This document shows, one piece after another, positions 84 to 54,210 of a stretch of DNA of 64,000 bases; within the stretch, counting starts at the first letter, position 1; each line of letters begins with the position of its first letter. The position numbers and the translations under genes are program-made. The notes under the pieces were generated by a model. The model did no database searches. It saw nothing but the letters and a program-made list of their open reading frames with translations, and had not been told where the DNA came from. Source of the DNA: Candidatus Omnitrophota bacterium (lineage in GTDB: Bacteria; Omnitrophota; Gorgyraeia; JAFGHF01); assembly GCA_042571705.1 (NCBI GenBank), contig JBHPFV010000001.1, forward strand, positions 46,630-110,629, written 5' to 3'.

Positions 84-195
84 GTGCTGGGTATTTTGCC
101 TGTGCTTGGTTTATCTACCCATAGCTTCTATGCCTTGGCGATTATTGGGTTAATTTTATTAGGAGCCGCTATCTATCGTTTGGGGCGTAAGGGCG
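84..195 (+). repeat. Junction J0 (LG..PVLG motif + TM + basic cluster) at the ORF start
   Basis: Peptide VLGILPVLGLSTHSFYALAIIGLILLGAAIYRLGRKG. DNA gtgctgggtat resembles J1-J3 (ctgggtatatc), and PVLG resembles J15/J24. Confidence 0.5.
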
Positions 196-6100: not shown

Positions 6101-9100
6101 GATTAAGCTCCATAGGGGTGGGGCTAAGCTGATTTTTAGACTGCAGGGCGTGCCTTTAAGAAATTTTGACTGGGCTGAGATTTCTGCGGATGAGGCTAAA
6201 GAGGTAGTCAGGACAATCGGCCTGGCCTTAGACAAGCTACACGCCTGCGGCATTGTCCACAATAGTCTTTGGGATATTGAAATAATAGAAAACAACATCC
6301 GAATTATAGAGGAGCAAGGTACGATTAAAGTACATTTTGCTAATTTTGCCTTTGCCGAAACCGCCATTCATTGGTTGCGGTTTACCCATGAGCGGGATAC
6401 CCTGATTAGTCTGCTGACAGAAAAACTAGATTCAACATATGCAGATGGCCAATTTGACTGTGCAGAATTTACTGCCTGCTATGAAAATTGGCCCTTGGGC
6501 AAGCAGAGGCATCCGCCAACAGCGATGATTGGCTGGATCTGGGAGCGTTGGATCGGTGAGGGCAGGGGCAAAATCTCAAGAAAAACCGCAGCCAGGATAT
6601 CGTTTACGCTTGAGGAAGGCTTTTTTGCCGGAATCTTACTTAATTTTCTGCCGTGGCTGTTTGCGAAAATTGGTTCCTTGGACCCCGGTGTTATGTTCGT
6701 GGTGTTGTTTTATCTCAGCATCGTCTGTTATGCCACATCCCACACCCGGATCTATCGCTGGCAGCAAGGTAAAGTTGAGGACGAAGAGGCCAATGTGCGT
6801 CATCTGTTCTGGTTTGCGCTCATAGGCTTCCTCTTCCGCATTGGTTACATTATTCCCGGTGTGCCGGGATGGTCGAGCCTGCTTCTAGCCTTAGCATTAC
6901 ACGCCCTGTATAACAATGTCGTTGTGCCACTTGTACCAAGGCTGCCTTTAGCGATGGCGGCGGATAAAGTAACTCCGGCAAAAGCGAAGCTATCTCGCCT
7001 GCAAAACTTTGCCCGGGATTTTAAGTATATGAAAAATATAACATATCGCATTATTAAGTTCAGATATAATGGCGCGCGCTTGGAAAACGGCAAATGTTAC
7101 ATTGTCAGAGCAAATAAGCCTGATGTACGTGCAGTTGAAGAAGCAAAGGTGCTTTTGGATATAAATCCGGAAAATGCCGTTCAGTCTTTGCCTAGCTTGA
7201 TAGGTTTTGTTAAGCCTGAAAGCGTTCAACAGGCCATGGAACATACTTTTAGCTGGTTTGATGATTTTTCTGATGCGATAGTGGTTGAATTTATTGATGG
7301 TCAGAAATTAGAAGATTATTTTGCCCGTGTTTTAACTCATGAAAAGAAAAGCCTGGGTGAACCTATCCTTTTTGAGTTGGTTTTGAAGATCCTGCGAGCT
7401 TATAAAGAAATTTACGCGGATAAAGGATATGTAGCTTGTGATTTGGATCCTTTTGGAATTATTGTGCAGGCAAAATATAATGGGATTGAAAGAGTTGTGT
7501 TTGTAGATAATGATGCCACGGCAAGGATCGATGACTTAAGTTCCGCAGCCATCTATAATAAACTTTCACACAAAGATGACTTCATAAGTGCAGATAGAAG
7601 AGCGAGGATTAACAAATATATCTTTTGCAAGGATGCCCTTGGGCTAAAACACGAGCGAGTTATTTCCTTGTCTAGAATGCTTTGTTTACCCAGAGACGAT
7701 GTTTACGCTTTATGCGCGACTTTATTACAATGTATTCATTATATTCCTCAAGCATGGTTTGATCAACCTAATCAAGGGAAGGCTAAGGCCAAGATTGCTC
7801 AATTAAAGCACTTGCTGTCAAAGTATAAACGCTTATCCTGCCGCGCGCGCAAACACGACCCAGCGTCAATAGATAATTTTATCCAAGATGTAGAGGCAAT
7901 AGCTGGGACCAAGCAGGCCAAAACAACACCCGCTACGGCGATGATCGGTCATTTCTGGAACTGGTTATACCAGAAAGATATAATATCCTTGGAGACCGCG
8001 GCCAGGATTGCCGGCTTAGAGGAGCTGGTGTTTGCTGGACTTTTACTTAATTTTATGCCTTGGTTTTTGGCAAAATGTGGATTCTTGGATCCTGCAATTT
8101 TTCAATTACTCTTTGTAATCAGCGTCATCTCCTTTGCTCTTCTTCACGATGCCTTCTATTTTTGGGAAGGCGATAAAGTTAATTTAGATTCTTTAATTGA
8201 TACCGAAACTGATAAAGTCTCATTTGCGCTCCTGGGCCTTGCCTTTAGATTAACTTATCTTATTCCCCAAATCAACCCCTGGCTTAGTTTAGCCATCGCC
8301 CTGGTTTTCCATACTCTCTACAACAATTTCATTGCTTGGAAGTGGTCTGATGATCTACCCATAGCCATGGCCAGTCAAAAGGCGAAAAGAGGAACAATGA
8401 AAAGAGCAATTTTCTCTGGTACTCGGGAGTACTCATTCACTAAGGATGATTTAACTACGAGGGTTCCTTGTTGGAGAAGATCTGTCGGAAGAGACAGAGG
8501 AAACAGAAGAAGAAGAGGATACTTTTCAATGGCAAAACAGGAACAAACCAACAAGACCGCGCTGGGTATATCTTTTGCGCCCATTCTAATGATCGCTGGG
8601 CTGGGGTTGATGTTGGGGCTGGTTGTGGTGTTTACCTTAGTGTTGTTGGGTTGGATGAGGAAAAAGGCGGGCAAAACACTATTATTTATAGCTGATAAAG
8701 GAGTTCCAATCTATCTCTATGTCTTGGAGAATCTTTTTAAGCAGCCCTTTAGAGATATCCTCTCCTTTATGAAAAGGCACTACCGTACATTTTCCATCAG
8801 GATGTTTAAAATAGATGTGGCTTCCACGCTGTCTAATTGGCTCAAAACCAAGTTGTTTAAGAATTTTGATGACCAGAGAGGATTTGAGAGGAATGAGTCT
8901 CATTTGGCCAGCGAAGATACGATTAAAGAGTGGGTCAAGGCCCAAGTTGCTGCCGGTGCCGATGTATTAGATCTTCATGTAGCAATTAAGGGAAGAGATG
9001 AGGCCGAAGATTTACTCTGGGTGATCGGATTGGCAAGAGAATGTACCACCCTGCCGATAAGTATTGACAGTGTTGATCCGCAAGTCGTTACCCAGGTGCT

Positions 9101-12100
9101 TCGGGCAACAGAGAATAGGACTGCCGACCCTAACGATAAAGATTATCTTTATGGTGGTCCGGTAGTGATTAATTCCATCAATGAGCAAAATGTGGCTGCT
9201 TTTACAGAAATCCTCACTGAGCAGAGTCTGCGGGATATTTCGGTGATTGTCCAGCCTCATCCCGGGCTAATATCTAAATACCTAGAGTGGGAAAAGTTAA
9301 CGGCGGCACAACTTGACAGCATTAAGCATTGCGTAGTAGCGCTCAAGGGATTAATTCCTGAAAGAGATATTTACATCGATCCGGGCATCCAACCAGTTGG
9401 GATGTATGGATCAGGATACGGGGTAATTGCCCTAACTCTGTTAAGAAAGATTAAGTCTGATCCTAAACTGGCGAATGTAAAAACCACGGGTGGATTCAGT
9501 AATGTAGGTAACAAATTAGAATTGTATAAAGATGTGAAGGAAAAATTTGAATCGGTCAAGCATATGAAATCTAAGCTGGCGCAGGCAAGTGTGATTATGG
9601 CTATGCTTTATCGGTCTTTAGACGCCGCCTTAATCGACCCAACAGACAGCGAGCTAATGGAGAGTATCAATATGGCTGGCCAAATCAATAAGGTCTGGGA
9701 GCAGTTGGAAGTTGAGGTTAGCAATCAGGAATTTCCTCTTGCTGACGAGAAATTGAGCGAGATCATTGATAAATATAATATCAGTATTGACGAAGAAAAG
9801 AAAGACCTGATCAATCAGGTTTGCATGCTGATGCTTATCGCCTCCAAGGCAGATCAGACTGATAAGTCTATGCTTGAGCCTGATTGGCAGCCTGAATGGG
9901 AGCCAAAGGTAAGCGCAGAAGACAGCGCTGCTAAGGCCCAACGCACGCTGCGGGCGGCCAGGGTAGCCCTGCTCAAGTCGGAGTACGGCGTGCGTAATCT
10001 ACTGGATGAATTTATCTTCGCCGAGCCAGTCATTGCTGAGCCGGAAGAGGATTCCGAAACCGAACAAGCGCTGGGCGTATCCGCTTTACCTATTCTAGCA
10101 TTCACCGACCCGCTATCAGTAGCTTTAGTTGTTTTCTTTTTGGTTTATGTAACATGGATATTTGTGGACTGGGCGTATTTCGAAGGTATGCGGCAGTTTG
10201 CCAGCTTTGAGCCGGTTGAATGGAAGGATATGCAGCCAGCGGTTCTATTTGTCAGACTGTCGAGTGGTTTGGAAGAATACCACAGGCTGGATGCTTTACG
10301 CGGTTATAATACCTTCGGCGCGCTGGCCAGCGCCTTAAGAAGTAAACAATTTTTACAAAAATTTGCTCACGCTAATAGATTAAACAGTCCCGAGTTTGTC
10401 TTTGAAAGTGAGGATGACTACCCTGATTTTGATGTGCATCTGGCCGATCTTTCCCGAAAGCCAGAGCAGGCTTCTATAGAAGAGTATTTAAATAATTTCC
10501 TCAGTGAGAAAAATATCCAACCATTTATGGTCTGCGTATCAGCCACCAGCACTGAACTTGACGAGGCCAAGGAAGTAGCTAGAGTTTCGGCTGAGATTAT
10601 GCCTGAGGCTAAGCGAGTGATCGGCGGGGCACATGTTTCAGTAGCACCTAATGGCTATTTACGCAAGACAGCATACCAGATTGCCTGTATCGGCGAAGGG
10701 GTAGAAACCCTGACCGAATTAGCTTTTGAGTTGAATGTTCAAGGCCGGCGCAGGCCGAAACTATCTAAAATTTCAGGCATTGCTTACAAAACCGCAAAAT
10801 TTTGGATACGCTTAACTCCGGATAGGATGCCTCAACTTAAGCTTAATGATTATCCTTATCCCTCAAATAGCTTAGATTTGTTTGTTGATAATTGGGAAAG
10901 CGTTGAGGAAAATAAGAAGTGCGTAATTCCGATATATGCCGGTTCAGGCTGTCGATACAATTGCGCCTTTTGCGCTCAAAAGGCAATCTACAAAGGAAGA
11001 ATCAGAGAGCGCAGCGCAGTTAGCATCTTTTCCGAGTTAAAGAAGTTACACAAAAAAGGTTTTAGAATGTTTAGGATGCTTCAAGAAAGCTTTCTCAATA
11101 ACAAGGACAGGAACAAGGGCAGGGTCGAACGATTTTTAGAGTTAATAGAGGCAGAAAAAGCCAAAAATGCAGATTTTAAGTTTAAATGGCAAGCAGAAGC
11201 CAGGGCCGACCAATTTGATGATTATAATTTATTGCGCAGGATGAGAGACAATGGATTATGGGGTATTGCGATAGGCTTAGAAACAGGCGACCAGGCGCTC
11301 CTTGACTCCTTAGACAAAAAAATCAAGCTTGAACAGGTGTCGCGGTTAATCGAATGGTGTGATGAGCTTGGTATCGATATAGTGGCTTACTTAATGGTTG
11401 GCCTGCCTAATCAAGATTGGCAGAGTGCGTTAAAGACAGTCATCTTCTTCAAAAGGAATCTGCCGCGTATTATTTATATTAAAATTAATCCATTTATTGC
11501 TGCTGCCTATCTAGGTACTAGACTCAGCAGAGACGGCTCAATAAGAATTATTAGAAAAGCAAAGAACAGCCTTGATTTACCTGTAAGCACTGAAACCGAT
11601 GCGAAGACTTCTGAAGAAATAACCGAAGCATGGGAACTCCTGAGTAAGTTCAATGTCGCCTTTGAAGCAATAACTAGAGTTGTTGTAGTAGACGGAACAG
11701 ACCTTTACGAAGTGCCTTTAGATAAGCCAACCACTTTAATAATTAGAAGGACTATGCGAGATCTTGTTATCCGGGCCCAGCCCAAACTTACGGCCAAGAA
11801 ACGCAAGCAGGCATATCAACAAATAGTTAAGCACGATGTAGCCGCAGATGTGGATATTGGTTTTGAGCGCGAACAACTGGCCACAAGGCTGTTTACCGAT
11901 TTTATTCTGGATATAAATTTTGCCAATGGATTTAAGGCAATGCGGCATTTCACTGTCGTCAACCGGATCAAATGGATGCTCCTCTGCGCCGCTATCTGGG
12001 GATTAAAGAATAGTGAATTTGATACTATAGAATTTACACAAGACGAAGATACGTTAGGACAAAAGCTCAACAACTCATTAGAGGTAGTTAGCCTTAAGGA

Positions 12101-15100
12101 GCTGAATGGATTGGTAAGCGCAGTTGATCAAGAGGAAACAGCAGTTCCGGATATAGCGCAACACCTCCAAGAGTTTACCGCTCAGCTAGATCTTGATTTT
12201 ACTTTCGACAAAAGCGCCGGAAGGCTAATTTTGGCCAAAGCTGAAAAAAGCGAACAAGCAGTGCTGGGTATATCGATTCTACAGATTATGATTCCTGTTG
12301 GCCCAATAGCATTAGCTCTATTTATCGCCTTAATCTTAACCTGGCTGTATTTTAAGACCGTTTCTCAAACCAATCGGAGAAGCCTGCCCGCCAGGTATAC
12401 TCTTGGGCAGGCGGGTGTCCTAAAACCAATCCCCGCCTGCCTGACAAGAAGCAGGGCGGGCAGGGGAAAAGTGTACCCTGGGCAAAATCGTAAGCATCCG
12501 ATGCAGTCTCTGCTTGGTGGCGGCATAGTCCGGGCCAGTGTATCATCCGGTTCAAAAAATACGGAAACAGAAACCGCTCGGTCTAAAAGTCGTCGGAAGC
12601 GCATTGAGGCAATACGAGAAATGGTGAAAGACAAGCCAGATCATTCTGTTGAGTACGATGAGATAGTGCGATACTTACATAACCTATTTGATGATACTAG
12701 CGTAAAAAAACTCACAGTCGTACAAGATTTTAGAATTGAGCCAACCTTAAAACCTCTGAAAATAAAAATTAAAATAAAACATGAGACTTTTCCAGACACG
12801 CCGGCGCATAGAGATGCAATAGTTAAACTGATGGAAGATTTGCCAAGAGGCACCAAGTTGACTTACGAAGAAATAGCAGAAAAGATGAAAAAACAAGGTT
12901 TTGATAGTTCCTTCAGGAGAGTCATGCGCGAATTTGGCAGCAATGATGCACGTCTTAAAAAATTGCGTCAAAGAATTAAAAGCGAAAGAATTGAGAGAGC
13001 AATAGAAGCCAAAAGACGCAGAGGCGAAACAGAGGCCTATTTGAAACCGTTGCCGCCAAGGTCGATTACCTATGAGCAGTTAATAAAGATACTTATCGAC
13101 AAAAAAAATTGTGTAGGACTGAGACTCAAGCAGGTGCAATCAGACTTTGATCATGAGCCGCGCCTGCAGAAGCTACGCAATAGAATCAGGCTGGTTCATG
13201 TCGGAAGGAGCCTTAAGCCGCTAGGACGATTTAAATTTGATTTCATTGGCCTGAAAGCAAGAGGAATACTGCCTAGATTTTTAGTGTTATCAATGAACAA
13301 TTGGGACAATGAGAAGGCAGCTAAGCATTTTGGTGTTGGTTTTGAGACATTTATAGGGCAATGCGTAACGCTCAAAATTAACGAGATGCGCAATCCTGAA
13401 CAGGGGCGCAACAAGATTAACCTTGAGCAGTGGCAGATAGAGCAGCTCAAAGATAGGCAGGCTACGGCACTTGCCTATCATCAGGCCTGGGAGCTGGCCA
13501 ATGGCGATAAGAAACAAATGGCCAAATTACTGGGTATCAGTCGTAGTTGGGTGAGCAACCGGATGGGAAGGCTCGGCAAAAATTTCGAAAAAAGCCTTGG
13601 CCCGAATATTGAGCTGCGTATAGCAAAGGAAATCGGGATTCTTAATGTCTGCAAAAACCAAATTACACCTTCTGAATTGGCGGCTAAGTTACATGAGAAG
13701 CCTGTTTACAATAACATTCCTTTGGCCCAACTGGAAAAATTGGTCTGGCAGGATGCCTTGGGCTTCAAAGATATTTGCGCCCACCGCAACTTCATCTTTG
13801 CTGAATGGGTGCCGGTTGAGATTAAAAAACCGAAACTAGGTGGCGCTAAAGGCCAAGTAAGCCCTCTAAGGAAACCCCTAGACCCAAAAGAGGAAAAGTT
13901 AGCGAAAAGGGTAAATAATGCCAGAGCGCTTTTATCCAGCTTAGAGCGTTTTTATCAACACTATTTAATTCCGAAACAAATTGGCATCCAGAATGATAAG
14001 CAAAACATCACCTGTTTGTTGATGATCGAGACCATGTTAGGTTGCTTAAAAGACATTATCCAGGATCATATTATTAAAGAACCAACAATCAAGCAACTGG
14101 GTCAGGATCTAAATGTAGACACTGTGGGCCTGGAAAAAAGAGCAAAAATAGCAAGTAAGGAAATTAGAAAGGGGCCTACAGGTAGCATGAAGACATTAAG
14201 CAGGCGTAAACAAGAAATATGGGATGAGATTAAATCTGCTGATGAACTCGATGAAGGCCATCTTAAGTGTGAAGACGCAAAACCAATAGTGCCGCCCATA
14301 TTTTGGATTCCTTATGTGGAGAGATTGCGAAAAATACACAAAATATGGAAATCGCTTCATGCTCAAGAGGAAGGAGAAAAAGAAGCTCACTGGGAAAAAG
14401 CGCTTGCACCCGGTCGCGCTGCCGCGTCCGGCTTTATAAAGCCCGACTTTTTGCCTGAGGAAGACGTGCCATACAAAAGATCAAATTATAAGAAAGACTT
14501 AGAGCGAGCGCAGAAAGCTGTTGCGGAAGGATTAAAGTCAGCGCAGAAAGCTGCGGCTGAGCCCCGGAAGGCTGAAGATACTGTTGAGGGATTAATGCAA
14601 AAAGCTCAGCAGGAGTTAGGAAAACTCAAGTCTTTAGCGGCAAAAGGCGTCGGTGGTATGGAATGGTTTGAGAGCGTTAGTAGAATAGAAAACATGCTCG
14701 ATCGACTTGATGCGGTAGCTCATCAGCTTAGTAAAGAAAGTGATATTGTTTTTCTTTGTTACTGGAAATCAAATCAGCGGGTAAGACTGGAAGAACTGGC
14801 TGAGAGGCAAGAGAAACCAAAGCGACACTCAGAGGATGATGAACAGTTTACTGCTCAATTAGCGGCCTATGAAGGAATGACATATCCAGTGATGTTAGAA
14901 ACCAGCTTAGCGGAAGGAAAAATTAATTTTGCGGTTACCCTGGTCGCAAAAATCGAAGTTCGCGGATGGGCGGATACTATTCCCGGCTGGGGTGAGCTTA
15001 AGGCTCGTGTAGTACGGGAGGCAAAGAACTATCAGGCCTCTGCTAAAAAATCCGCCCCAGACACAAAGTGCCTCTTATTGCCGCTGGCCTGGATTGCCGC

Positions 15101-18100
15101 ACCCGGCCTGCAGCCTGCCACCTGGCAGCTAATTCTTTTCACCTTGTGTCTATTCCTCATCCTTTGGACCGTTTCTCAACTTGACCCTGCGCTTAAAGGA
15201 ATTGCGCAGGCTAGGCCCAAAAGCCTGTCCTTTAGGAGCTACCCTTGTGGGTTAAATCGGGAAGTTGAGCTGATTTCAAAGCGGAACCTCTCTCCTGACA
15301 CGGGAGAAGCAAAAAATTGGCTGCACCAAATGACCAGGGCTAATTCAGGTAGTTTGCCAGGAACAACAACTCCAGATGTCCAGGGAGAAGTCCTTAAAGT
15401 TGATAAATCGAGGTTTGACTTGGGAGAGGCTATTGATCAGGTTGTTCAGTCAAAGACCACAAAAGGACGCAAGCAAAGGGTTGTGGAAGTGCGCGGCGAT
15501 ACAGTCCAATTGCAATATCAGCAAGCAATAATTTCCGATATCTTAACTACACTATTAGGAATTATGTTCACGGTTATAAGAGTTAGCGATAAGCTAGCCA
15601 TTTATGTCAGGAGCGGAGAGGAGAAAGTCCTGATTAGATTATTCAGCACTTCCCGCAAGGTGAGTAGACGAAGATTAGAAAGTGAAATTGAGCAATCTGG
15701 CATTCAAGACAAATTGGATGATATCTATGGCCGGCTTTATCCGGAGATATTTAGAAAAGCAGGCCATGATTCCGCAACAGAGATTGTGCTAACGCTTACT
15801 TTGCCGATGAGCGATCCCAAAGCTTTAGTCAGGGCTGGCGCCCGCCACGGCATGATTATTGCTGATCAGGACATACCAGATCCAAGAATTAAGAAGTTTA
15901 TGGACATTATCCGTCAGCACGGTGCAGAAAACCACTACATAGTCTTTGGCGGGCATGGCCGCAATATGTTTTCCGGCCGCAAGGGTGTTCCAGCTGATTT
16001 CGATGTATTAGTTAGAATTAATGCAAGCGAAGTTGATTTATTAAGCGCAGGTTGTGAAGTTAGTACTTTATTGAAACAAGGATATGTGACAGCAGAAGAT
16101 TTACAGTTACTAGGCGCCAACGAAGCAACAGTGCTAAAAGCAAGATTAGAACAATTAGAGAATGAATTAGTTGGTGTGTCTAAGAAAGGCAGTACTTATG
16201 CTCGTCTGCGTGCAGCTTTTGAAAGACATTACGGAGATCGAAAGAGTTTTAGAGGCGAAGAGATGCAGACTCGCAGGATAGTCAGATATCTAGCACATTT
16301 AGAGATAGTCAGGCGTTATGTCTTGCCTATGACCGAAAGGCTTGAGAAAATTTTCGATGTGGAAAACGGGGCTATTTCAGATTATATTAGTCGGGATAAC
16401 CGACTTGTTTGTTTATACGCCCGGACCAAGCATTGCCATATTGATGGCGGCTGCCTGGATTATGCGGGATTTGTTACTTCAGATGGACTATTTCATCAAG
16501 CCCGTGGGCGATTTCAAATAATTGATGGCAATCAACCCCGCGCAGATCAACTAGGTATATGTTGCAATGGGGTGGTTTACGATCCCCTCGGAGCCTTAGA
16601 AGACTATCGGCAAAGAACTATAAAGCTAGAATCCAAATTAAGCGAAAAGGACAAAATTAGAATAAGGCAAGTATTGCGTTGTTTTAGAATTAAACATTTA
16701 AATTTATTTAATCCAGATGATGAAGCGAAAACTGCAATGTATGATTTTTGTTCTAACGCTTCAGGCGTTTTCTTCAATTCAGCTTCTTGGCGAGCATTTA
16801 CTCAAAGGCATGCTTTATTAGATGAGGGAGTGAGGCAATTAGAGGGGCTGATATTAAAAAAGAGAATGATTGTCCGTGAGTTACACTTCGAAGAGGAACA
16901 ACATATTCAACGAGAAATAAACCAACAGATTAGGGCACTGCTTCAATATATAAAAGAAAAATCATCTGCCTGGCGTCTGGCCAATCAATTCTTAAGAGAA
17001 GATTTTGCCGCACTTGTTTTACGGCAGAATAACGCACCCAAAAATAGCTACTTAAAGGAAGAAGCCGAAAGAAAACTTATGCTTGGTTTAGAAAAATACC
17101 TTTATATTCCTTCTAATGCCGGGGCCCTCTTCTCTTATGCAGGGGTGTATCGATGGGTTCAGGATGTAAAGAGAGACCCGGTATTTGTAGCTTGGTATTT
17201 AGGTAAGATTTACCGGGCAGCGCTTCGGCCGGAGGATGTAAAAGAAGATTTAAGGCAAGCAGAATTTTTGCCTTTATTTGAAGCCCTTGGTATCAGTATT
17301 GACAATATGGAAGAAGAGGCGATTGATTATAGACTGGCCAGCCTGCAGGAGCCTATTACTTTGGAAGAGGAAATTAGACTTGCCGAATATATGCTGGCAC
17401 AAGGCCGCTGTCCTGAAAAGTGGCTTTACGTGCTCAGATATGCTTATCGACAAAGAGCAGTCCTGGATAGAGAAGAAGGCCGGCCTATAGCCGCTAGCCA
17501 GAATTTCAACAGGGCCATTGATTGTAGGATTACTTTAGCCGGATTACAGACGAAAGATAGACCACAGGATGCCGCGGAGCATTACTTAAGCGCCGGCAGT
17601 ATTTGCGAAGAGATTGCCGATTACAACAAGGCCAAAGTGCTTTATCTTGCCGCCTTAAGGATTCTGCAATGGGAGAGCGCTAAATCAGAAGACTTACCCG
17701 ATCTTCAATCTTATGCTACATGGAATCTCTTAAAAGAGACATTTGAGAAGTTATCGGCATTAGAATGTAAATACGGTAAGATGCATTTAGGTACCGAACA
17801 TCAAAAGAATGCTAATTTGGCCGCAATCGAGGCAGACAATGCTGTTCTTGCCCCAATCAGAGCAGAGCTTAAGGCTGCCGGCAGCTCTTTAAGCCCGCAA
17901 CAGCACTTAGTTAATATTATCATGAAAGATGCGGTCCTGAAAGAAGGCTTGGCAGCAGTTGGGCTCCTAAGACAACTCTCAGGTAAGGCTGCTCAATTTG
18001 GCCTGAGAGTGGCCAAGAGAACACTAATGCGCAGAACTACCAATCTGGACGCACCGCAAATAATCGGCGTAGACTCAAGGAAAGGTCGGCACGCGGATAA

Positions 18101-39100: not shown

Positions 39101-42100
39101 TAACTTCTTTAGACGTATCGCTAATCGTATAAATAACGCGATAACTGCCCTTACGCAGTCGATATTGGTTGGCCGTGCCGGTAAGTTTCTTACAATTTCC
39201 AGGCCGGGGATTTCCAGCAAGAGAACGAATGGCAGTTATAATAGCAGGAATTTGTTTCTTGGGCAGGGAGCGAATCTGTTTTTGCGCAGAGGCAATGAGG
39301 AAGAGCTTATACAACCTTCTCTCCCTGGAGTTGCTCAGCGAATTTATCAAAGGAAATCCGCTTTTCCTTACGGTGAGACTTTATGTATTGGCTGTCGGCC
39401 AAATCCTCCACCAGTTCAAGGAGCTTCCGGTAGTCCTTTATACTCAGTATCACCGCAGAGCACTTTCCGTGTTCGTCTACTACAAACTCTTCGTGCAATT
39501 TTATCATCGTTTACCCCCAATTTATCCTCTGATTCCAACAACTCTACCGATAAATATAACCCATTTTCCCATAGAAGTCAAGCTGTAAGAGGCCAAACCG
39601 CTGTGGTGGGGTGGTTGGGGTTGGTGGGGGTGGTTGTGCTGGCTGTGGCGGCGGACTTTGAGCCTTTGCTGGGGGTAGGCGGTGTAGGCGCAGGTCTGTT
39701 TTTGGCCGCAATGATGATGGGTGGGATATATGACGCAAGCAGAAAAAAAGAGTCTGCGCATAATATTAATGCAAAAAAACAATTGATAACAGCTGACCAG
39801 ATAAAAATGACCGGATATAACCCTACTAATCAGCGAGATAGAGTAATAATTACTTATCAGAATCAACCAAAATTTCCTGTCATAGCAGAAAGCAATGTAT
39901 TGGCGATGTTTGAGTTCAAGAGATTGGCAGAGTTTGTGGATATAGAAAAGATACAGGTTGCAATAAGCACGGGTTTGCCAAGCCTTGGGTTCTGTATAAA
40001 ATCTACTGATCCTACGCTTCCGGGATATAACGAAAAAGCACAAGAAGCACTGCTAGTTAGAATAAATGTTTTTATCGATTACTGTTATCCGAATGACTTT
40101 AAAGCCTGGGAAAATGGTGAAATAATTAATGCTGCTAGGCTGACCGGGTTACACACAAACCCTGCCATAAAAGGTGAGGTTTTTCTCCATAATCTATTTG
40201 AAAATCATTTGAAACCGATGATCAAGAATGCGGGATTTGAATGCATTAATGCCTGGGCATTTGAGATTCCTGGTAAAACGTGGCTTCATCGTCACGGTTT
40301 TGTAGATATGAAAGTTGGTGATGGTTCAACTATATTTACTTTAAATTTACAAGATTACAGTCCTGTTGGTACGCAGTGGCATGGTTGGCGGGGGAAAGCA
40401 GGAGAATCAGAACCGGCCCAAGAATCTAATATCTTGCTACCTGATGAGTTGAGATGGTCTTCATACAGACTGCCTGATTATTTTATAGTAGATAGAATGA
40501 AAGACGATAATGATTTTCGTGAACGAGTATTCAATGAAGGAATTTTGCCTGTAGGGGTAAAAGGAATTATAGATAATCCTGAATTAGCAGATTGGATGAG
40601 GACATTTGACCCGCGAATGGTCGCTAAAATCAAGGCTTTTCTGTATAATTCCTACAAAGATCACAAGCGATTAGAGCTGATTGGAATAAAAGGGACCCAT
40701 CATTGCTCTACTTGCGCTGATGAAATATGGGAAGTAATACCCGGGACTCTATTCCATTGGGCGGCTTGGAATCGAGTTGGTTTAGACCCAGAAAATGGCC
40801 TCGGCAAACGTTTGGCCGATATATATCCTTACATAGAAAACCCGTGGATCAAGGGAATGGGCCAGGTGAAATGCAGAGAATATACTGGTGATATTGTGGA
40901 AGGGTTTTTACAAAAGCTAAAAGCAGAATCTGAACTTATGCCTGTTGTTTTGCAATTATGCGAGACTTCTAATGAAATCGTATTAGACGATTATTGGTAC
41001 CGCGCCAGCATTACAAATGCATTATATGGACTGGGCGACCATCATGAATATGATATTTCTCCTTTCGGATTGTTCTTTATAACAAATCTATCCATCCTGT
41101 TATTTAAAGAAGGCTTAATAACGCAAGAAGATTACAGGAAACTTGAAATAGCGACAACAAGGGTAGAGTTTCCCTATGGCGGTATTGGGCGTTTCTTGCC
41201 GTATAACTTATTTAGAGAGGTATCGGCGTCTAAGGATTTTGATTATAAGCAAGCGGTAAAAAGATTTTTTGAGAGTTGTACTCGCAATGATTATTGTTTA
41301 TCTGACCAATGGTATGCAGATCAGTTGTATGCTGCACTTTCTGCTGCAAAATCTCAAGGTATAAGTGTTGCTGATGATATTTGGCAAGAGTTTTGCAGAA
41401 TGTTTCGTCAAAAAAATAGGGACAGCGAGCAATCTCCGAACTCCCTATCCGCCTTCGGGCTGGGGGGCTTGGAGTTGCCTGTTATCGTGGGCTTGGTGGC
41501 TGTTGGGGCTGTGGCTGTGTTGTGGAAGCTGTTGCGAAAACTGGGAAAAAGTCAAAATCCAAGACCTGGCCCCATCGACGTTAGCTTGCTTCGGCCGATA
41601 GTAATTTTAGCCGGTGTTTTAGCCTATTCTTTTTTCTCTCCGGGAGCAATGGAAGGAATACTTAGTTTTCACTTGTTGATTTGTCTTATAGTGGCGATCA
41701 GCGTAGCACTCGTTTGCTATGTTGGGCACATATTCAACAGGGATAGAAATCTAGAAGGACAAAAATCTCAAGTCAAAAAAGATGGAATCACTCCCGAAGA
41801 GAAAGAGAAAGTTTTTTGGGATATTGTCAAGATACTAGCCGTGTTGTTCTTGATATGGGTTGTTTTCGGACCAGTAAACACTGCCGCAGGCGGGACATTG
41901 GCATTGCCAGCTGCAACCACTACAACTGTGGCACCGGCTGCAGTTCCGTCAACACTGCCGACACTTACGCAAATGCTATTAACTATTTTAGCAATAGCGG
42001 TTGGGGTCTATTGTTTGCTGAGACCCAATCTCAATCGGTTTAAGACTCTCTTAAACAGAAATTTGCTTTGGCCGATAGCATTTTTATTAGTCGGTGCTGG

Positions 42101-45100
42101 TGTTTTAGCAGCATATTTTTTCCTCCCTCCCGAAGCAACAACCCAAGCCATGGCTCAGCTTTTCGGCACAGGAGGCAGCGCAGCAGGAGTTAAGTCCTTA
42201 CTCCCGGCAGGCGGCATGGCTCTGGCCATGGCGGGGGTGACAGGAAGCGCAGGCGCAGGAGAAAGATCTGAACGAGAATTTAAGCAACCTTCAAGGAATC
42301 TTGTTAATAAAGATGGCCCAAAGGCTGGCTTCGGCGCACCGTGGAGAATTGATGTGGCCAATGTGCCTACGCTTGCTTTTACTCAGGTTGCGGCAGCAGA
42401 ACCCGAAGATTCGATGTTTGCATTGAATATCTATCTGCGCTATCTCTCGGTCGCAGCCAAAAAAGAAATTATGAATAGAATTAGGCGTGCACGTAAGTTT
42501 ATTGAGAAGCTAGAGTCAATGTATCCCGATGCATTAACTTTTGTGCTGTTTGGAAGCTATCCTTATGGTTTTATGAATGAGATACCACGCGACATAGATG
42601 TTCACATTACGGAAAGCAAGAACGAAAATATTACGCAGCTAACAAATCTTGCTGACCTTTTTGATAGGTATAGTCGCACGCCGGAAACCGTGAAAGGCGT
42701 AGTTTTTACCGAAAAAGATTTCTTAGGGTCATTATCTCAAAATAACGCAGGTTTGATATTGCCTTACGTTCTAGAGGCATTGACCGGTATTACCGTTAAG
42801 GGGAAATTTTATTACGATGTCAATAATCCACCTTCGCTCAGGTATATTTTCTACCTTTTAGATTTTACTCAAGAAACCATAGATGAATCGATGGAAATAT
42901 TAGATTTGCCTTACTCGAGTGAAAGTCTTCAAGAGTACAGGCATTATAAGGCACACCAAGTGCATAGAGATAAAATTCGCTTTGCTCAAGACACCATAGA
43001 CGCGTTTGAAAGAAGAGAAAAAGGCAGAGCTGCCATGCACATGAGAGCTATAAGACTTGTATGCCAAAGTCAACTTGTTATGAAGTTGATCTGCGATCTA
43101 TATGGAGTAGATAGCACAGAAGTCCTGCCGCCAACATCCAATAACCCTTATATTAACGAACAAGCGATCAAGACATTGAGTACATATATAACAGAAGGTG
43201 CTCCCCATATGTCGTTCATCATGGACGGCGTACATAATACTGACGACTTTACTTTAGTCTATGATGCCTGTCGTCAGCTATGCGAGGCATTAACGAGTTT
43301 GGATGAAAGAGTGGAGAAGTTGCGGCAGCGTACCCAAGACAAAGATCCCGATGCTGCCTCCGGCTCAGACGGTACAGCCCTCTCCATCTTCGGACTTTGT
43401 GGGTTGGGGATGGGTGGTGTGCCTTTACTGGCTGTTGGGGCAGTGGTTGTGCTGTGTTTTAGCCGTATGTTTAGGTCGGGCTTAAACAGGTGGGGTTGGG
43501 GCATTGCAGCTGCATTATTACTTATCCCAGCGCTATTTGGCCAGTCAACAGAGCTGTTTGCGGTCGCAGGAGGTTTTAAGCCTTTGCTTGGCGGGGCAGG
43601 CGGCATGGCTCTGGCTATGGTCGCCATGATGGGTGGGATGACAGACGTTGGCGATGGGTCGCATAAAGATAAAAATAGGTCTGACCCCTTTTCTCCACAA
43701 CCTTCTTCGGAAAAAGCAAAGAAGGTAAAAGAAATTTTTGGTGAAAACGCGATAAAAGACGAGCTCGATTTAAATTATGATTTTCAGCAGCTTGTAGAAG
43801 GACATAGGAGAGAGAGGTTTGAAGAAGGGAACGAAGGTGGGGCGAAAGGGGAAACAAAGTGGTTTCCTTTAAGAATAGCTTTAATGCCGCTTTTTAGATG
43901 TGTAGCCAATTGTCTGTATTGTTTCTTTGGAAATAGCGTACATAAAAAAGACGAGATGTCCATAGAGAATATGGCTCATATATTCGATACCCAAGAATTA
44001 CTTATAAAAAATATTTTCTCACATCTAAGCGGAGGAGAGATTTTCCTGAGGGATGATGTGTTGGAAATGATTGAGAAATTTCCAATCGTTTCATTAGTTA
44101 CTAACGCGGCAACCATGACTTCTTTAGAAAAAGCTAAGGATTCCATTATAGCGTTAAAGAAAGTATATGAAAAAAGAATAGAATCCGGACAGATGGAGAT
44201 TTTAAAGCCAGATAGTTTTGGGCAAGTTGATAGATATCAGAGATCCTGGTTGTGTTATTTATGGATGAGAGAGAAACTAATAGAGTTAACCCGAAATGAG
44301 CCTTTTCATATAGGTATTTCCTTAGATGACATTTGTTTAGCGGAACACTCTATTTCTGTGGGAAAAATAGCAAATTTAATAGTCGCTTGTGTTAATCATT
44401 ATCCTAAATTGGGCCTGGGATTTATAGCAATTGATGGAAAATGGAAAGAAGAAGCATACCCTGCCCTGAAGAAAGAACTTGAGAGGCATGGTTTAGCTTT
44501 AAAATTCAATGAAAAAAATAATAATTTTCTTTTGACAAGGCACGGTGGATTTAGAAAACTAATCAATTTAAAAGAAAATTCTATTGAAAAAGTGGGCGGC
44601 GCTTTTGCTAATTTGTCCGGTGAAAATTTTGGCAAAGCTATTTTACCCAAACAAAGGTCTTATTTTGGATTCTATAAAGATTATTATGGACTAGCTATAA
44701 TTGATTATAGTGGCAACATGAGTATTTCAGACGGTTTCTTGGCTGAGCATGCACCTCTTATATTTGGAAATGTACTTGAGGAAGGCTGGAGTAAAATACT
44801 TAAGAGGGTAGACAAAGATCCACTATTTAGAGCGCTAGTTACCTCAACGCAAAAAATTATTTCAATAGCAAAGGAATATGATCCTGATATTGTAAAAAAT
44901 ATACAAGAGGGCAAGCCCGGTGGGACTATTGCACTATTTTACTGGCTTCTCTCCAACCCCGAGCGAAAACTCTACGTAACCTATCGGCTTCTGCAAGACT
45001 ATTACGAAGAGGGCGTGTTAAAAGGCAAAAATCCGTTCAAGGACCTGGAGCCACATGAGATAAAGGCTTTAGTTGAGAAAGAGGTTGGAGAATTAAGAGA

Positions 45101-48100
45101 TGAATTCAGAGAAAGACCAGGTAAAGCCACAGATGATGGAGGCAGTCACGAATCTCCTGAAACTCTATCCGCCTTTTGGTTTGGTGGGTTGGGACTGATT
45201 GGAGCCGAGCACTGGGTAGTGCTGGCTGTGGGTCTAGGTATTATGTTTGGGGGGACACTTCTCCGATTGGCTCGAGAAACGGTCTCCGATTGGCTGGAGA
45301 ACCGGTCTCCGTTTGGGCTGAGACCTGGTCTTATCAATGTGCGATTAGTAGGCTGTTTGGTATTGGGGATATTAGGCATCGCGGCTCTATGGCTATGGGG
45401 CGGCCCAGGTACAGGGCTGGCTGTGGCGGCGGACTTTGAGCCTTTGCTTGGTGTAGGCGGTGGCGTAAGTTTAGCTATGGCGGGGGTGGGGGTGATTTAT
45501 GCAAGCTTAAATGATAAAGAGGGGCAGATCATAAGTGCTGTTGAGAAATTTTATAATGAACATGGAGAGAATGTTTATAGAAACACTGCAGGAGGAATAG
45601 GGGGGAGATATAAACCATTGCCATCAAAAAAGGCGATGGAAGATTTATGGTTACTGTGTAAACAGTTAAGAATACGAAAAGGAGACAAATTTTATGATTT
45701 TGGATTTGGGGATGGTAGAATTGCTGTTATGATGAGAGCGCTTGGTCTCCAAGCGTATGGCGACGAAATAGATGTTAATTTAGCCAAGAAAGCAAAGGTT
45801 TTATTAGGGAAAAATCTTAAGAAGTATTCATTTTTAAGTAGCCTTGTAAACGAAGACAATGTACATCTACAACACGGTGATTCCTTCAATCGAGATTTAT
45901 CTGAATTTGATATTGTCTTTTTCTATTATACGTTTCCTATTCCAGATTGGACCGGAGGAAATCAAGATTTGGCTAGAGAAGTGTTTAAACAAAGAGTATG
46001 GGCAAAGCTGATTGGCAATATAGACGGAAAAGGCCTTAAGTCTGGGGCACAATTTATTACTTTCTGTCCTCCCGAGAGCAAATATTGGTTAGATGACTTT
46101 GATGAATTTAATGTTATGCATTGTGGTAATTTCGGGATATATGAGCTGAAACCGCAGGTTGGGGATGGAGACTTTGGTGGCTGGATGACTGATCCAATGT
46201 CTGGATTTGTTGGTATGCATCAGGCGGGTTGGCGTAAGAAAGCAGAGGAATCGCAACCGCCCCCAGAAGATATTTATTCTATAGCAAAAATAACCGTACC
46301 GAAAACTGCACATAGGCAAAAAGGAATACACCACAGGCCTTCGCTAGCTCTTGTTGATACTTGTGGAAAAATATATAAGCTATTTTCTGAAAATATTATA
46401 ATTAAATTTTCAAGGGGTGAGGAAAGTAGTGGCGATGAGGCTACTTATCGTCATGGAGGCATTGCAGAGTTTGTTTTTAAAATAGGATCCTCAGGTGGAT
46501 ATACAGGGCCATATATAATTACTATCGAAGGGCCTTTTAAGCAAGACCTGCTTGAAGAGGCAGCCAAGATTCTTGCTACCGTTCTAGGGGACGAAAGATT
46601 TAAATATGGTTTTCATTCAGACCTGCCACTGAGAGAGGAAATAGATGAAAAGATTAGACAACTCAGAACATCCATTGCCAAAAATAGGGGTGACGACCAA
46701 TCTTCAGAAGCCCTATCCGCTTTGGGGCTGGGGGGCTTGGGGTTGATGGGTGGCTGGAATGTTGCTATTTTGGCTGTGGTGACTGTAGTGGTTATGGCTA
46801 TTTTTAGCTTACGGCAGAAACGAAGGGGTGATTATCGTGACAATGAGGTTACTTTAGCCTCAAGAGTAGATATGCGTTTTTCCAGGGCTTGGAGTTCTTG
46901 GCGGTCAACTTTAGTTTTGGCGAGATTATCAATGCTTTGGGTAAGTGTCTCAATTTTAGCGGCCATATTCTGGATTGCCGCTTCTAGAAGGGTAATCTTT
47001 TCGGTATTCTTGCCAACTTGCTCATACGTAGCATCAAGCTTAGAAACCATTTCTTCTTGTCGTTCGCCAAATGCCTTGAATTCACTGCGAAATTGGTCAA
47101 TTAGCGTACCTACTTCCGTGGGGCTAAATTTAGCTTTGGCAGGTTTGCTTGTTCTGATGGGTTTTTTCATGGTGAGGTATATAATAAGCCTGCCGAGCGC
47201 AAAAGTCAAGCGAAAAATAATGCCGCTAACCGTTAAAGGTGAGCTAAATGTACAATTACTTGAAAGGTTGGTTGATCAGGCTGGCAGAAACGCCGGATTT
47301 GTGCTTGATGTAGGGATTATAGCCAGGATTGTTGGCGGAATGAGAGTTCTAAGGTCAGGAAAACGCAAAGATATAGATATTGCTCTTATTTTGCAACATC
47401 CTTTTCAAGGTGGTGAATGCAGCAAGTTTATTGAACAGTTTAAACAAATAGTAGAGAAACATCAAGGTGTAGAGTTAAAGAAAAGAGAAGTGAGTGCAAA
47501 GGAAGGGAGGCATTTTCCGTTTCATTATCTTAAAATTACTTCTTCTTTAGCAGGACAAGTAAAAGAGATAGAAGTTAGGGATATATTTCTTATACTTGAC
47601 TCAAGATTGATTTTATCTGCCCTTGCTCCACCTTCACAGGTTCTATCAGACCAGACGCTCGAATCCCTATCCCATTTATCTTTCAAGAATCTTATTACTT
47701 TAGAATATTATCTTGGTGATTTAGAAATATACACTAAGATGTTGGAAGAATTCAAGAGTAAAGTTCAAGATGGCGGCGATGTGATCGTTGACTTCGATAA
47801 GCATCCTTCTTATGCTGAAAGGGCAAGGACGCATATAGCGGAAGCCAAAAGATTAATGGAATGCAGTGAAAGGGAGTTGGCTCAGGATGAAAAATTTCGT
47901 CAGGTTCATACCCGTTATACCTGTTTTATCTTTAATGTAGAAAAAAGGGTCAGACGTCAATCTCCGAGACCGACGAACTGGCGGGGGCATCAGATGTTAC
48001 CGTCGGGAGTGGTGATGACACAAGAGATGCTGCAGAACAACGGATATGCGCAGGGGTGGCAGCAAGGCAGAGCTGCTCGAGCAGCCAATGCATGGTTTGG

Positions 48101-52988: not shown

Positions 52989-53003
52989 ACGGACAAGTAA
53001 AAA

Positions 53004-53345
53004 CTATTCTCTGATGCGGAAGCCGTCTTTTTCTAAGATAATCAATTTCTTATCTAAATCTTTCTGGGAGAATTTATTGAACAAGTCTTCTAAGCCGACT
53101 AAGATAGTGGAGATAATCGGTGGGCGGGCTTTGATTCTAATAATGCCGTGGAAATTTTTAGGTGGAAAGGTAAGCAAATTAGCAAAATCTTTGTCTTGGG
53201 TAAGGATAATGCGATTTTGCCGTTTGGCCAGAATAGCGATATCTGTATCTTTAGTTCCTGAAGTAGGCGTGGTAACATCGTGTCCCTTATCCCGCAGGAT
53301 GTCTACTAGTTCATCAGGGATGTTCTCGTCAACCAGTAGCTTCAA
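53004..53345 (-). CDS. DUF5615-family PIN-like putative toxin
   Basis: MKLLVDENIPDELVDILRDKGHDVT..TDIAILAKRQNRIILTQDKDFANL matches the DUF5615 N-terminal pattern. It is convergent with the giant ORF stop, separated by a 15-nt gap. Confidence 0.7.
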   Translation of the reverse strand: MKLLVDENIPDELVDILRDKGHDVTTPTSGTKDTDIAILAKRQNRIILTQDKDFANLLTFPPKNFHGIIRIKARPPIISTILVGLEDLFNKFSQKDLDKKLIILEKDGFRIRE

Positions 53346-53346
53346 C

Positions 53347-53601
53347 TTAAGCCACCTTAGTAAAGGGAACCGACTCTCCGGTCCTCATAAGCTCAGCCGC
53401 ATAATGGAGCGCCGCCTGAATGTGTTTTTTGGTAAGCTTTCGATAATACCTTCTAATTATTTCGTCTTCATCTACTCCGGACTCAAGGAGCTCAAGAACA
53501 AGATAGACCATGATGCGACTTCCTTTAAAACAAGGCTGGCCATGGCAGATTTTAGGGTCAACTGTGATATAATCTTCGATTTTGGTGATTCTCTTCAACA
53601 T
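53347..53601 (-). CDS. DUF433-family putative antitoxin
   Basis: ITVDPKICHGQPCFKGSRIMVYLVLELLESGVDEDEIIRRY..LTKKHIQAALHYA is a typical DUF433 pattern. It lies 1 nt upstream of the DUF5615 gene, with AAGGAG 7 nt before the ATG. Confidence 0.7.
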   Translation of the reverse strand: MLKRITKIEDYITVDPKICHGQPCFKGSRIMVYLVLELLESGVDEDEIIRRYYRKLTKKHIQAALHYAAELMRTGESVPFTKVA

Positions 53602-53654
53602 ATTTTCTCCTTAATTAATTTTTTAGTTCGTTTACGGAATAGCTTCTTTATGAA

Positions 53655-54192: not shown

Positions 54193-54210
54193 AATTAGGG
54201 TTGACGGGAG

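Follow-up and report, generated by a model that had tools for sequence, protein, structure and literature searches.

Small antisense genes read through by a giant open reading frame of an Omnitrophota bacterium

A single 53-kb open reading frame (ORF) of an uncultured Candidatus Omnitrophota bacterium runs without one stop codon across five small genes on the opposite strand, and the codon choices of these small genes support the view that the giant frame is kept open by selection. The analyzed sequence (the window) is a stretch of 64,000 nucleotides, positions 46,630 to 110,629 of contig JBHPFV010000001.1 (GCA_042571705.1). The five intact minus-strand genes are a hicA toxin gene, a relB–parE toxin–antitoxin pair, and two members of a conserved small coiled-coil family (cc1 and cc2). 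The coordinates are summarized in Table 1. The observation had been made in a sequence-only reading of the window, and it is confirmed here: the positions of the cassettes, the absence of stops, and the phases of the small genes relative to the giant frame (hicA and parE, 0; relB, 1; cc1 and cc2, 2) are as described there. Its interpretation, that the antisense ORFs are genuine genes and that the open frame requires selection, is supported, with the corrections given below.

Table 1. Features of the window within and around the antisense cassettes
Position	Strand	Feature	Description
84..52988	+	Giant ORF	GTG start; 17,634 codons (aa); chain of enzyme-like modules separated by about 30 clusters of hydrophobic helices; modules include Glucosamine_iso, PIG-L, Pterin_bind, B12-binding plus Radical_SAM, ICMT/PEMT, GH130, Bac_transf, Methyltransf_23, two Diphthami_syn_2, and QRPTase
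8592..8648	+	Linker membrane helix	Immediately before the hicA cassette
8682..8903	-	hicA toxin gene	73 aa; ATG start, abutting the Pterin_bind domain of the giant frame; phase 0 (codon-aligned)
37254..37267	+	14-nt segment	CCGAGGAATTACGG; absent from the otherwise near-identical NCBI contig
38338..38441	+	Linker part A copy	..ALSVFGLGGLGLFGGWW plus a membrane helix; precedes cc1
38450..38854	-	cc1, coiled-coil family gene	134 aa; GTG start; phase 2; identical to NCBI protein ACFL2I_08115
38895..38923	-	Promoter-like site for cc1	TTGACA-17-TATGAT with a TG extension; 11 of 12 matches; an AAGGAG ribosome-binding site lies 8 nt before the GTG start
38935..39050	+	Second linker part A copy	TLSVLGLGGLGLM plus a helix plus WWRR; precedes the parE–relB cassette
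39060..39314	-	parE/relE-superfamily toxin gene	84 aa; TTG start inside the TTGTATAA overlap with the relB stop; phase 0
39307..39507	-	relB-like antitoxin gene	66 aa; phase 1; stop overlaps the parE start
39553..39581	-	Promoter-like site for relB–parE	TTGACT-17-TATATT; 10 of 12 matches
39597..39770	+	Linker part B	..VLAVAADFEPLLGVGGVG..MMGGIYD..KKES
46699..46810	+	Linker part A copy	Precedes cc2
46832..47170	-	cc2, coiled-coil family gene	112 aa; ATG start; phase 2; keeps the conserved N- and C-terminal motifs of the family
47181..47209	-	Promoter-like site for cc2	TTGACT-17-TATTAT; 10 of 12 matches; ends 10 nt before the ATG

The giant ORF is a string of about 25 unrelated enzyme-like modules joined by repeated hydrophobic linkers. 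In one frame, at least 15 Pfam families, each present in at most two copies, were found both upstream and downstream of every cassette. A Kyte–Doolittle scan, rather than a topology predictor, detected 72 hydrophobic 19-mers in 30 clusters along the whole length. The architecture matches the class 1 "multi-enzyme metabolic clusters" of Omnitrophota (Nielsen & Lui 2026, bioRxiv 10.64898/2026.06.07.730766), and the ORF also resembles the "Archaeovorins" of West-Roberts et al. (2023, bioRxiv 10.1101/2023.11.21.568195) in exceeding 10,000 aa, in its many different enzyme families including Radical_SAM and methyltransferases, and in its scattered membrane helices. Carbohydrate-import and GH113 genes lie downstream, as West-Roberts et al. 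report for giant genes, and the only module homologues found were labeled Omnitrophica. The SecA DEAD-like domain, present in most giants according to West-Roberts et al. but not presented as obligatory in these papers, was not found in the Pfam searches, nor were HEAT or dockerin domains. The linker repeat family had no detectable relatives, and no close relatives of the linkers or of the antisense filler were found in the collections searched. The protein-level constraint on the linker core is only modest (pN/pS of 0.70). Neither paper mentions genes on the opposite strand inside the giant ORFs.

The antisense ORFs are genuine genes by several criteria. The hicA product matched Pfam HicA_toxin (PF07927, E 6.3e-21, profile positions 4–58 of 58) and contains RGSHIYF with the conserved Gly-Ser-His motif. 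The parE product matched ParE_toxin (PF05016, E 1.4e-11, profile positions 6–89 of 89) when scored on the 96-aa ORF at 39060–39350, and the relB product matched the RelB-like family (PF18506, E 4.1e-11). The antitoxin gene lies immediately upstream of the toxin gene with overlapping stop and start codons, and the pair keeps the operon architecture. "RelE," as the toxin was called in the sequence-only reading, is better named a ParE/RelE-superfamily toxin. The coiled-coil family has 12 homologues with profile hits down to E 1e-27. The cc2 protein, 44% identical to cc1, has both the N-terminal (TEVGTLIE.F..EFKVFGE / DATYEQVG.NTE.I) and the C-terminal (KVDREEF..LEKRISTLE.KV) motifs, whereas cc1 has diverged versions shared with P0013. 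Promoter-like TTGAC[AT]-17-TAT... sites, which are consensus matches only, lie directly upstream of cc1, relB, and cc2. A codon-usage scan independently flagged cc1, parE, relB, and cc2 as minus-strand coding; the giant frame scored -7 to -17 at these genes (about -2 at parE), against a mean of +5. In contrast, hicA is an orphan. No HicB-like ORF was seen in any minus frame within about 430 nt on either side, as judged by eye on translations and not by an HMM, and no promoter-like or ribosome-binding site was visible. The hicA gene may therefore be a relic. The cc genes are not foreign, although they had been described as such, because their homologues sit next to very large genes in every long contig examined.

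Every cassette follows a linker helix. The relB–parE cassette splits a bipartite linker (A...B) that is uninterrupted elsewhere and thus lies in the loop between the two halves of one linker. The giant frame across the four cassettes, promoters included, spans 563 codons (about 550 in the sequence-only reading). As noted there, it is rich in Ser (14.4% against 6.1% overall), Arg (8.7% against 6.6%), and Phe (6.7% against 4.5%).

The probability of an open frame was analyzed by synonymous shuffling that preserves each small protein and uses host codon usage, a test that had been set beforehand. The expected numbers of stops in the phase of the giant frame were 3.9 (hicA), 1.8 (cc1), 3.2 (parE), 3.2 (relB), and 2.6 (cc2), and none was observed. 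The probabilities of an open frame were 0.009, 0.068, 0.024, 0.0085, and 0.029, respectively, with a product of 3.6e-9. The 88 codons that are noncoding for the small genes add a factor of 0.0034, giving an overall figure of about 1e-11. The rough earlier estimate of e^-28 (7e-13), which assumed 5–6% stops among random codons, was about one order of magnitude too small, but the conclusion stands. The observed stops in + phases 0, 1, and 2 were 0, 11, and 3 for hicA; 8, 6, and 0 for cc1; 0, 8, and 4 for parE; 0, 0, and 2 for relB; and 4, 12, and 0 for cc2. Stops are missing only in the phase of the giant frame and are at or above expectation in the other two + phases, with the one exception of relB, which is also stop-free in phase 0. 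Phase 2 is intrinsically the most stop-poor antisense phase, and most long antisense ORFs in the window are in this phase; the cc cases alone would be weak evidence. Four of five stand-alone cc homologues tested, however, do carry antisense stops in phase 2. In the codon-aligned genes hicA and parE, 0 of 27 Leu/Ser codons are TTA, CTA, or TCA, although hicA is AT-rich (GC3 of 0.37), whereas the phase-2 genes cc1 and cc2 use 8 and 4 of these codons. A "very recent origin," the alternative to selection that had been offered, cannot explain the pattern because the antisense of an ordinary gene carries stops from the first day.

A 2.4-kb contig from a different assembly of a Candidatus Omnitrophota bacterium (GCA_042569555.1, JBHPHE010000101.1) matches the window almost exactly. 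It is identical across linker–cc1–linker–parE and has the same open antisense frame. However, this contig lacks the 14 nt listed in Table 1, 1.2 kb upstream of cc1, and without them the giant frame shifts and stops, which would split the ORF at about aa 12,390. Either continuity is not universal in the population, and may not be required in every cell, or that assembly carries an error. In another MAG, a 3,542-aa ORF with SF1-helicase domains reads through a cc homologue (phase 2) and a DUF7718 gene (Pfam E 5e-29, phase 0) in the same way, and the DUF7718 gene has no TTA, CTA, or TCA codons.

Other arrangements of genes or repeats within genes share part of these features. Antisense overlapping protein-coding genes have been claimed for a handful of short genes in E. 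coli, Pseudomonas, and Streptomyces; as in those cases, two ORFs on opposite strands fully overlap and the codon choice of one frame is constrained by the other. Coding on the minus strand is supported here by homology, and that on the + strand by flanking domains in the same frame and by the phase-specific stop depletion. In this window, the embedded genes belong to old, homology-supported families with their own promoter-like sites, and the overlapping frame is the newcomer that reads them as filler. Five such genes lie in one host ORF in three phases, and the statistical signature is stop avoidance only, not conservation of a second protein. In sedentary chromosomal integrons such as the Vibrio superintegron, relBE/parDE/hicAB-type loci with their own promoters sit inside a long, repeat-punctuated, same-orientation array of unrelated modules, and a role in stabilizing a deletion-prone array is conceivable here as well. 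No integrase or other recombinase domain was found among the window ORFs scanned, and no attC-like short-range inverted repeats were seen at the cassette borders in a repeat analysis without a dedicated attC model. The array here is one continuous ORF, and the cassettes are read through. Rickettsia palindromic elements and similar repeats are inserted in frame into ORFs as multiples of 3 nt and are translated as neutral insert peptides. Three 33-nt GC-rich hairpins and an invertible linker piece behave this way in the window, but the inserts of interest here are whole genes with promoter-like sites, not short repeats.

Several alternatives to ongoing selection on the frame were considered, and all appear unlikely. 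Mobile cassettes may have hit the giant gene often, with only those that happened to be stop-free in the right frame being tolerated and nothing adjusted since. The per-gene probabilities of 1–7% are not vanishingly small, the repeated linkers look recombinogenic, and one of the five stand-alone cc homologues is stop-free in phase 2 by chance. However, the relB–parE cassette needs two genes in two different phases to be open, a joint chance of about 2e-4 before its promoter region is counted, and AT-rich hicA avoids TTA completely. In addition, cc1 and cc2 fall with different subfamily members, so the frame has stayed open through long divergence. It is similarly doubtful that the small genes are dead, recently captured fragments that now evolve only as spacer sequence and whose intact ORFs merely reflect youth. 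The state of hicA is in line with this reading, but all five ORFs are intact, relB–parE keeps its overlap and promoter-like site, cc2 retains nearly all family-invariant residues despite its divergence from cc1, promoter-like sites with strong consensus matches sit in the expected position for three units, and codon usage still favors the minus strand at four of the genes.

Even less likely is that the giant ORF comprises several adjacent genes and that the open frame is a by-product of composition or chance. The NCBI annotation of the short contig calls ParE and cc1 and not the long antisense frame, and the 14-nt deletion variant would split the ORF. On the other hand, the joint chance is about 1e-11, the depletion is specific to one phase per gene in three different phases and is not explained by donor GC content, and only translation reads codon phase. 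An assembly or polishing artifact is the least probable; the 14-nt difference and the repeated linkers, which make assembly difficult, leave room for it, but the public contig reproduces the cc1–parE region, and the effect rests on codon choices inside well-conserved small genes, not on indels.

Here, we propose, with moderate confidence, that the 53-kb ORF is a genuine multi-enzyme giant gene encoding a chain of cytoplasmic-type enzyme modules tethered by repeated membrane-helix linkers, and that small independent genes lie on the opposite strand inside the loops that follow a linker helix. Homology-supported coding sequence on both strands, stop depletion specific to the phase of the giant frame, and recurrence of the arrangement in a second genome are established by the analysis, whereas expression of both strands, translation of the giant frame as one polypeptide, neutralization of the toxin by the antitoxin, the route of origin, and the reason why continuity matters are inferred. 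The small genes would either have been inserted into permissive linker loops or have been ordinary neighbors engulfed when adjacent large genes fused by read-through. In this view, ribosomes must traverse the whole ORF for the downstream modules to be made, and any stop in the giant frame is selected against; only stop-free arrangements would have survived, and remaining stops would have been removed by synonymous changes in the small genes. Continuity may matter because it avoids transcriptional polarity on a 53-kb message that has no internal restart. The giant protein would carry Ser/Arg/Phe-rich spacers of 74–181 residues with no sequence-level function of their own, while the small genes keep coding on the other strand.

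The + strand of the window carries one ORF of 17,634 codons, which has a GTG start and no in-frame stop, and it is followed by normal-sized genes. Translated in its single frame, the giant ORF contains many unrelated Pfam families, namely Glucosamine_iso, PIG-L, Pterin_bind, B12-binding plus Radical_SAM, HTH_8, ICMT/PEMT, GH130, Bac_transf, Methyltransf_23, Diphthami_syn_2 (twice), and QRPTase, with weaker DnaJ, NTP_transf_2, and second Radical_SAM matches. About 30 clusters of hydrophobic helices lie between the modules. In the 3' half, these form a repeated bipartite linker, in which part A reads ..(P)ETLSxFGLGGLG followed by a helix and then basic residues, and part B reads ..LAVAADFEPLLGVGGVGLAMG..MMGGIYD..KKES. 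The downstream genes form a mannan or carbohydrate utilisation cluster, consisting of two GFO/IDH/MocA oxidoreductases, a xylose-isomerase-like protein (AP_endonuc_2 TIM barrel), two ABC permeases, and two GH113 glycosidases with galactose-binding domains. No Rfam family and no tRNA was found in the window.

Coordinates of the features in the window and of the coiled-coil (cc) and DUF7718 loci in other contigs
Feature	Coordinates	Strand	Description
Giant ORF	84-52988	+	17,634 codons
Weak extra region	8343-8652		flagged by the codon-usage scan
Linker helix	8592-8648		precedes hicA
hicA	8682-8903	-	HicA_toxin E 6.3e-21, full-length match; start codon abuts the Pterin_bind domain of the giant frame
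Inverted linker piece	12355-12389	inverted	GGGACACCTTCCCGATTGG...TCCAGACCTGGTCCTA
Hairpin element	12383-12415	+	33 nt, GC-rich
Hairpin element	12432-12464	-	33 nt, GC-rich
Direct repeat pair	15068-15170 and 18104-18206		98% identical
Weak extra region	15822-16014		flagged by the codon-usage scan
Inverted linker piece	18200-18291	inverted	GGGACACCTTCCCGATTGG...TCCAGACCTGGTCCTA
Hairpin element	18230-18262	+	33 nt, GC-rich
Linker part A core copies (examples)	34027-34047, 38947-38967, 41443-41463, 46711-46731, 49072-49092		CCCTATCCGYCTT
Region shared with JBHPHE010000101.1	36997-39443		contig of 2,433 nt (L001)
14-nt indel	37254-37267		absent from L001 (at L001 2176/2177)
Linker part A	from 38338		precedes cc1
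cc1	38450-38854	-	coiled-coil family
Linker part A, second copy	from 38935		precedes parE-relB
parE	39060-39314	-	ParE_toxin E 1.4e-11
relB	39307-39507	-	RelB-like E 4.1e-11
Linker part B	from 39597		follows parE-relB
Weak extra region	41820-42078		flagged by the codon-usage scan
Linker piece	45251-45308, 49155-49214, 50502-50561	+	GGGACACCTTCCCGATTGG...TCCAGACCTGGTCCTA
Linker part A	from 46699		precedes cc2
cc2	46832-47170	-	44% identical to cc1
Direct repeat pair	49155-49346 and 50502-50696		about 88-91% identical
Carbohydrate cluster	52981-63279		downstream of the giant gene
First downstream gene	52981-53847		no family; overlaps the giant ORF's stop by 8 nt
L002 cc homologue	10001-10384		co-directional, just after an 1,860-aa multi-enzyme gene
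L004 cc homologue	10001-10528		convergent, 21 nt from the stop of a 2,337-aa gene
L015 cc homologue	9508-10026		divergent, 59 nt from the start of a gene of at least 3,149 aa
L008 host ORF	2470-13098	-	3,542 aa
L008 cc homologue	9941-10300		antisense to the host ORF, phase 2
L008 DUF7718 gene	10480-10800	+	Pfam E 5e-29; antisense to the host ORF, phase 0

A search with the N-terminal module found only two partial proteins (P0001 and P0002), both labelled Candidatus Omnitrophica. They are 57-60% identical over the Glucosamine_iso module, but in that other Omnitrophica giant ORF the module sits between different neighbours (PPDK_N or methyltransferase); modules are therefore shuffled between giant genes. 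The cc1 product is 100% identical to NCBI protein ACFL2I_08115 of GCA_042569555.1, "Candidatus Omnitrophota bacterium". The architecture matches the "multi-enzyme metabolic cluster" class of Omnitrophota giant proteins (Nielsen & Lui 2026, bioRxiv 10.64898/2026.06.07.730766) and the scattered membrane helices described for them, and the neighboring carbohydrate-uptake genes fit as well (West-Roberts et al. 2023, bioRxiv 10.1101/2023.11.21.568195). The giant gene itself is therefore of an established type, but neither paper mentions genes on the opposite strand.

The antisense genes are supported as genuine by homology. The relB stop overlaps the TTG start of parE (TTGTATAA), as is typical of type II operons. 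A profile built from cc1 and cc2 found 12 proteins with E-values down to 1e-27, which share conserved N- and C-terminal motifs. As to the function of the cc family, PDB, NCBIfam, and Pfam gave only generic coiled-coil noise. Promoter-like sites, recognized only as consensus matches, lie directly upstream of cc1 (TTGACA-17-TATGAT with a TG extension, plus an AAGGAG ribosome-binding site), relB (TTGACT-17-TATATT), and cc2 (TTGACT-17-TATTAT). hicA is an orphan with no promoter-like site or ribosome-binding site, and no hicB was seen in any minus frame near it. Exact-protein look-ups of relB, hicA, and three downstream genes returned nothing, and only cc1 was on record. A codon-usage scan trained on Pfam-supported modules independently marked cc1, parE, relB, and cc2 as better coding on the minus strand, each in its correct phase. 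In those places, the giant frame scores between about -2 (parE) and -17 (cc1), against a window mean of +5 with SD 4.8. The same scan flagged only three weak extra regions, which look like linker composition effects.

We next asked whether the open frame could be due to chance. Each small gene was resampled with host codon usage while its protein was kept unchanged, and the stops in each + phase were counted. The sequence-only reading had reported that the giant frame stays open through these genes, with the two toxin genes codon-aligned, the antitoxin gene shifted one way, and both coiled-coil genes shifted the other way. This observation holds, phases included.

Stops in the three + phases across the nested genes, and the chance that the giant's phase is open under protein-preserving synonymous resampling
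Gene	Giant's phase	Observed stops in phases 0, 1, 2	Expected stops in giant's phase	P(open)
hicA	0	0, 11, 3	3.9	0.009
cc1	2	8, 6, 0	1.8	0.068
parE	0	0, 8, 4	3.2	0.024
relB	1	0, 0, 2	3.2	0.0085
cc2	2	4, 12, 0	2.6	0.029

The product of the five P(open) values is 3.6e-9. The 88 promoter and spacer codons add a factor of 0.0034 at 6.2% stops per random codon, and the overall chance is therefore about 1e-11. The depletion is confined to the giant's phase; in the other phases, stops are at or above expectation, except that relB is also stop-free in phase 0. A large majority of the 107 long (at least 70 codons) stop-free antisense stretches on the minus strand within the giant ORF are in phase 2, which is intrinsically stop-poor, and this explains why all three nested cc genes sit in that phase. 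The codon evidence is the sharpest. In the two codon-aligned genes, hicA and parE, none of the 27 Leu/Ser codons is TTA, CTA, or TCA, which are the reverse complements of the stop codons, although the host uses these codons for 38% of Leu and 17% of Ser and hicA is AT-rich (GC3 0.37). In phase 2, where these codons are harmless, cc1 and cc2 use 8 and 4 of them, respectively. Neither a GC-rich donor, which is ruled out by the GC3 of hicA, nor a single codon-bias quirk can produce this pattern. Only translation reads codon phase, so the signal points to selection on translation of the giant frame, and of the two interpretations given in the sequence-only reading, selection for an open frame or very recent origin, selection is supported.

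Every cassette starts a few codons after a linker helix. Elsewhere, parts A and B are separated by roughly 15-70 residues, and the relB-parE cassette therefore looks like an insertion into the loop of one linker. cc1 and relB-parE share a single inter-module region. We looked for relatives of the linkers and of the filler segments read by the giant frame (for example SRVAIRFSKAWK or FLTISRPGISSK) in four ways. A word-indexed protein search gave no hit, a full-library HMMER search gave one weak 166-aa hit on the antisense-parE stretch, and a linker DNA pattern was found neither in the genome contigs nor in the metagenome contigs searched, leaving no orthologous loci to compare. The idea that part A is a PEP-CTERM-like sorting signal received no NCBIfam match. 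The part A core (CCCTATCCGYCTT) shows almost no synonymous variation (CTA-TCC in 10 of 12 copies) although the flanks vary, and its pN/pS is 0.70 in the giant frame, against 1.18 and 1.64 in the shifted frames; this could be gene conversion or a DNA/RNA-level role. Another linker piece (GGGACACCTTCCCGATTGG...TCCAGACCTGGTCCTA, encoding ..RDTFPFGSGPASRLNPDLVLP..) occurs in both orientations, and the giant frame is open through it either way, which suggests a DNA-level element or past inversions between linkers. The three hairpin elements (CCTGCCCGCC-N13-GGCAGGCGGG) lie inside inter-module linkers, where each is a multiple of 3 nt and is read through in frame, reminiscent of palindromic repeats inserted in ORFs; none was expected in 100 shuffles. 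Near-identical direct repeats link distant linkers, indicating recent duplication or conversion, and are a substrate for deleting or shuffling modules.

Independent support comes from the NCBI contig JBHPHE010000101.1, which equals the corresponding part of the window apart from one mismatch and a 14-nt deletion. It has the same open antisense frame across cc1, parE, and part of relB, although NCBI annotated ParE and cc1 on it and not the long frame. The deletion would shift the giant frame into a TAA, and the downstream frame reopens about 110 nt earlier. This is either a strain allele that splits the ORF or a local assembly error, and errors of this kind truncating giant ORFs were reported by West-Roberts et al. 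It remains the main caveat. Profile scans of genomes and metagenomes for further cc genes returned eight loci, of which only one (L008, in a groundwater MAG labelled Chlamydiae) was nested. In every longer contig examined (L002, L004, and L015), a cc homologue sits directly beside very large genes, which hints at a functional tie to giant proteins. Four of five stand-alone homologues carry 2-4 antisense stops in phase 2. In L008, the host ORF has SF1-helicase domains downstream of the nested cc homologue, and the DUF7718 gene beside it has no TTA, CTA, or TCA codons; P(open) is 0.06 for the cc homologue and 0.05 for the DUF7718 gene. The phenomenon is therefore not unique to this genome.

With moderate confidence, the evidence best fits small genes lying in permissive linker loops of a giant gene, with stops purged from the host frame. 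The homology of the small genes, the phase-specific stop depletion, and the recurrence in a second genome are shown by the analysis, whereas expression of both strands, translation of the giant frame as one polypeptide, the route of origin, and the reason why continuity matters are inferred. As to the origin, insertion is favored by the split linker around relB-parE, whereas engulfment when neighboring large genes fused by read-through is favored by the cc genes, because their convergent and divergent junctions with large genes in relatives are exactly the junctions seen fused in the window. One possibility for the importance of continuity is that a stop in a 53-kb message would uncouple translation from transcription and silence everything downstream.

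Among the alternatives, a filter without later adaptation is doubtful but cannot be dismissed, and the view that the small genes are dead relics is about as unlikely and is plausible for hicA only. That the ORF comprises several separate genes with an accidental open frame is very improbable, and an assembly artefact is still less probable. An integron array was rejected, because no integrase and no attC-like palindromes were found in the window. A farther-reaching reading, possible but unlikely on present evidence, is that Omnitrophota giant genes are "stop-less operons" that grow by fusing neighboring genes and by accepting cassettes in linker loops. In this view, whatever lies between modules would be swallowed, including oppositely oriented genes with active promoters, and would then be forced by selection on uninterrupted translation to become stop-free in one phase, so that the nested genes would be a built-in reporter that the whole 53-kb frame is translated as a unit. 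Two functional ties may also hold: the coiled-coil genes would be dedicated partners whose head-on transcription is coupled to the giant gene, and, as a speculation, the toxin-antitoxin loci would stabilise the repeat-rich gene against deletion, as they do in the superintegrons among chromosomal integrons.

The giant gene, the toxin-antitoxin families, and antisense overlap are each already known. The new element is the combination, in which several homology-supported genes with their own promoter-like sites lie fully nested antisense in one giant ORF, and a phase-specific codon signature shows which frame constrains which. Whether the 10,000 to 150,000-aa ORFs of Omnitrophota are really translated end to end is an open question, for which direct support so far is partial proteomics for one organism. 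Phase-specific stop avoidance inside unrelated antisense genes is evidence from sequence alone that continuity of the frame itself is under selection, and the same test is applicable to hundreds of published giant genes; there are 916 published Omnitrophota ORFs of at least 10,000 aa in Nielsen & Lui and 46 in West-Roberts et al. The locus is also an unusually clean case for the disputed field of bacterial antisense overlapping genes, because both partners are identifiable, with old gene families on one strand and a Pfam-flanked giant frame on the other, and the direction of constraint can be read from codon choice. Finally, it suggests how giant genes grow, by engulfing or accepting cassettes in linker loops, and links a new small coiled-coil family to very large genes.
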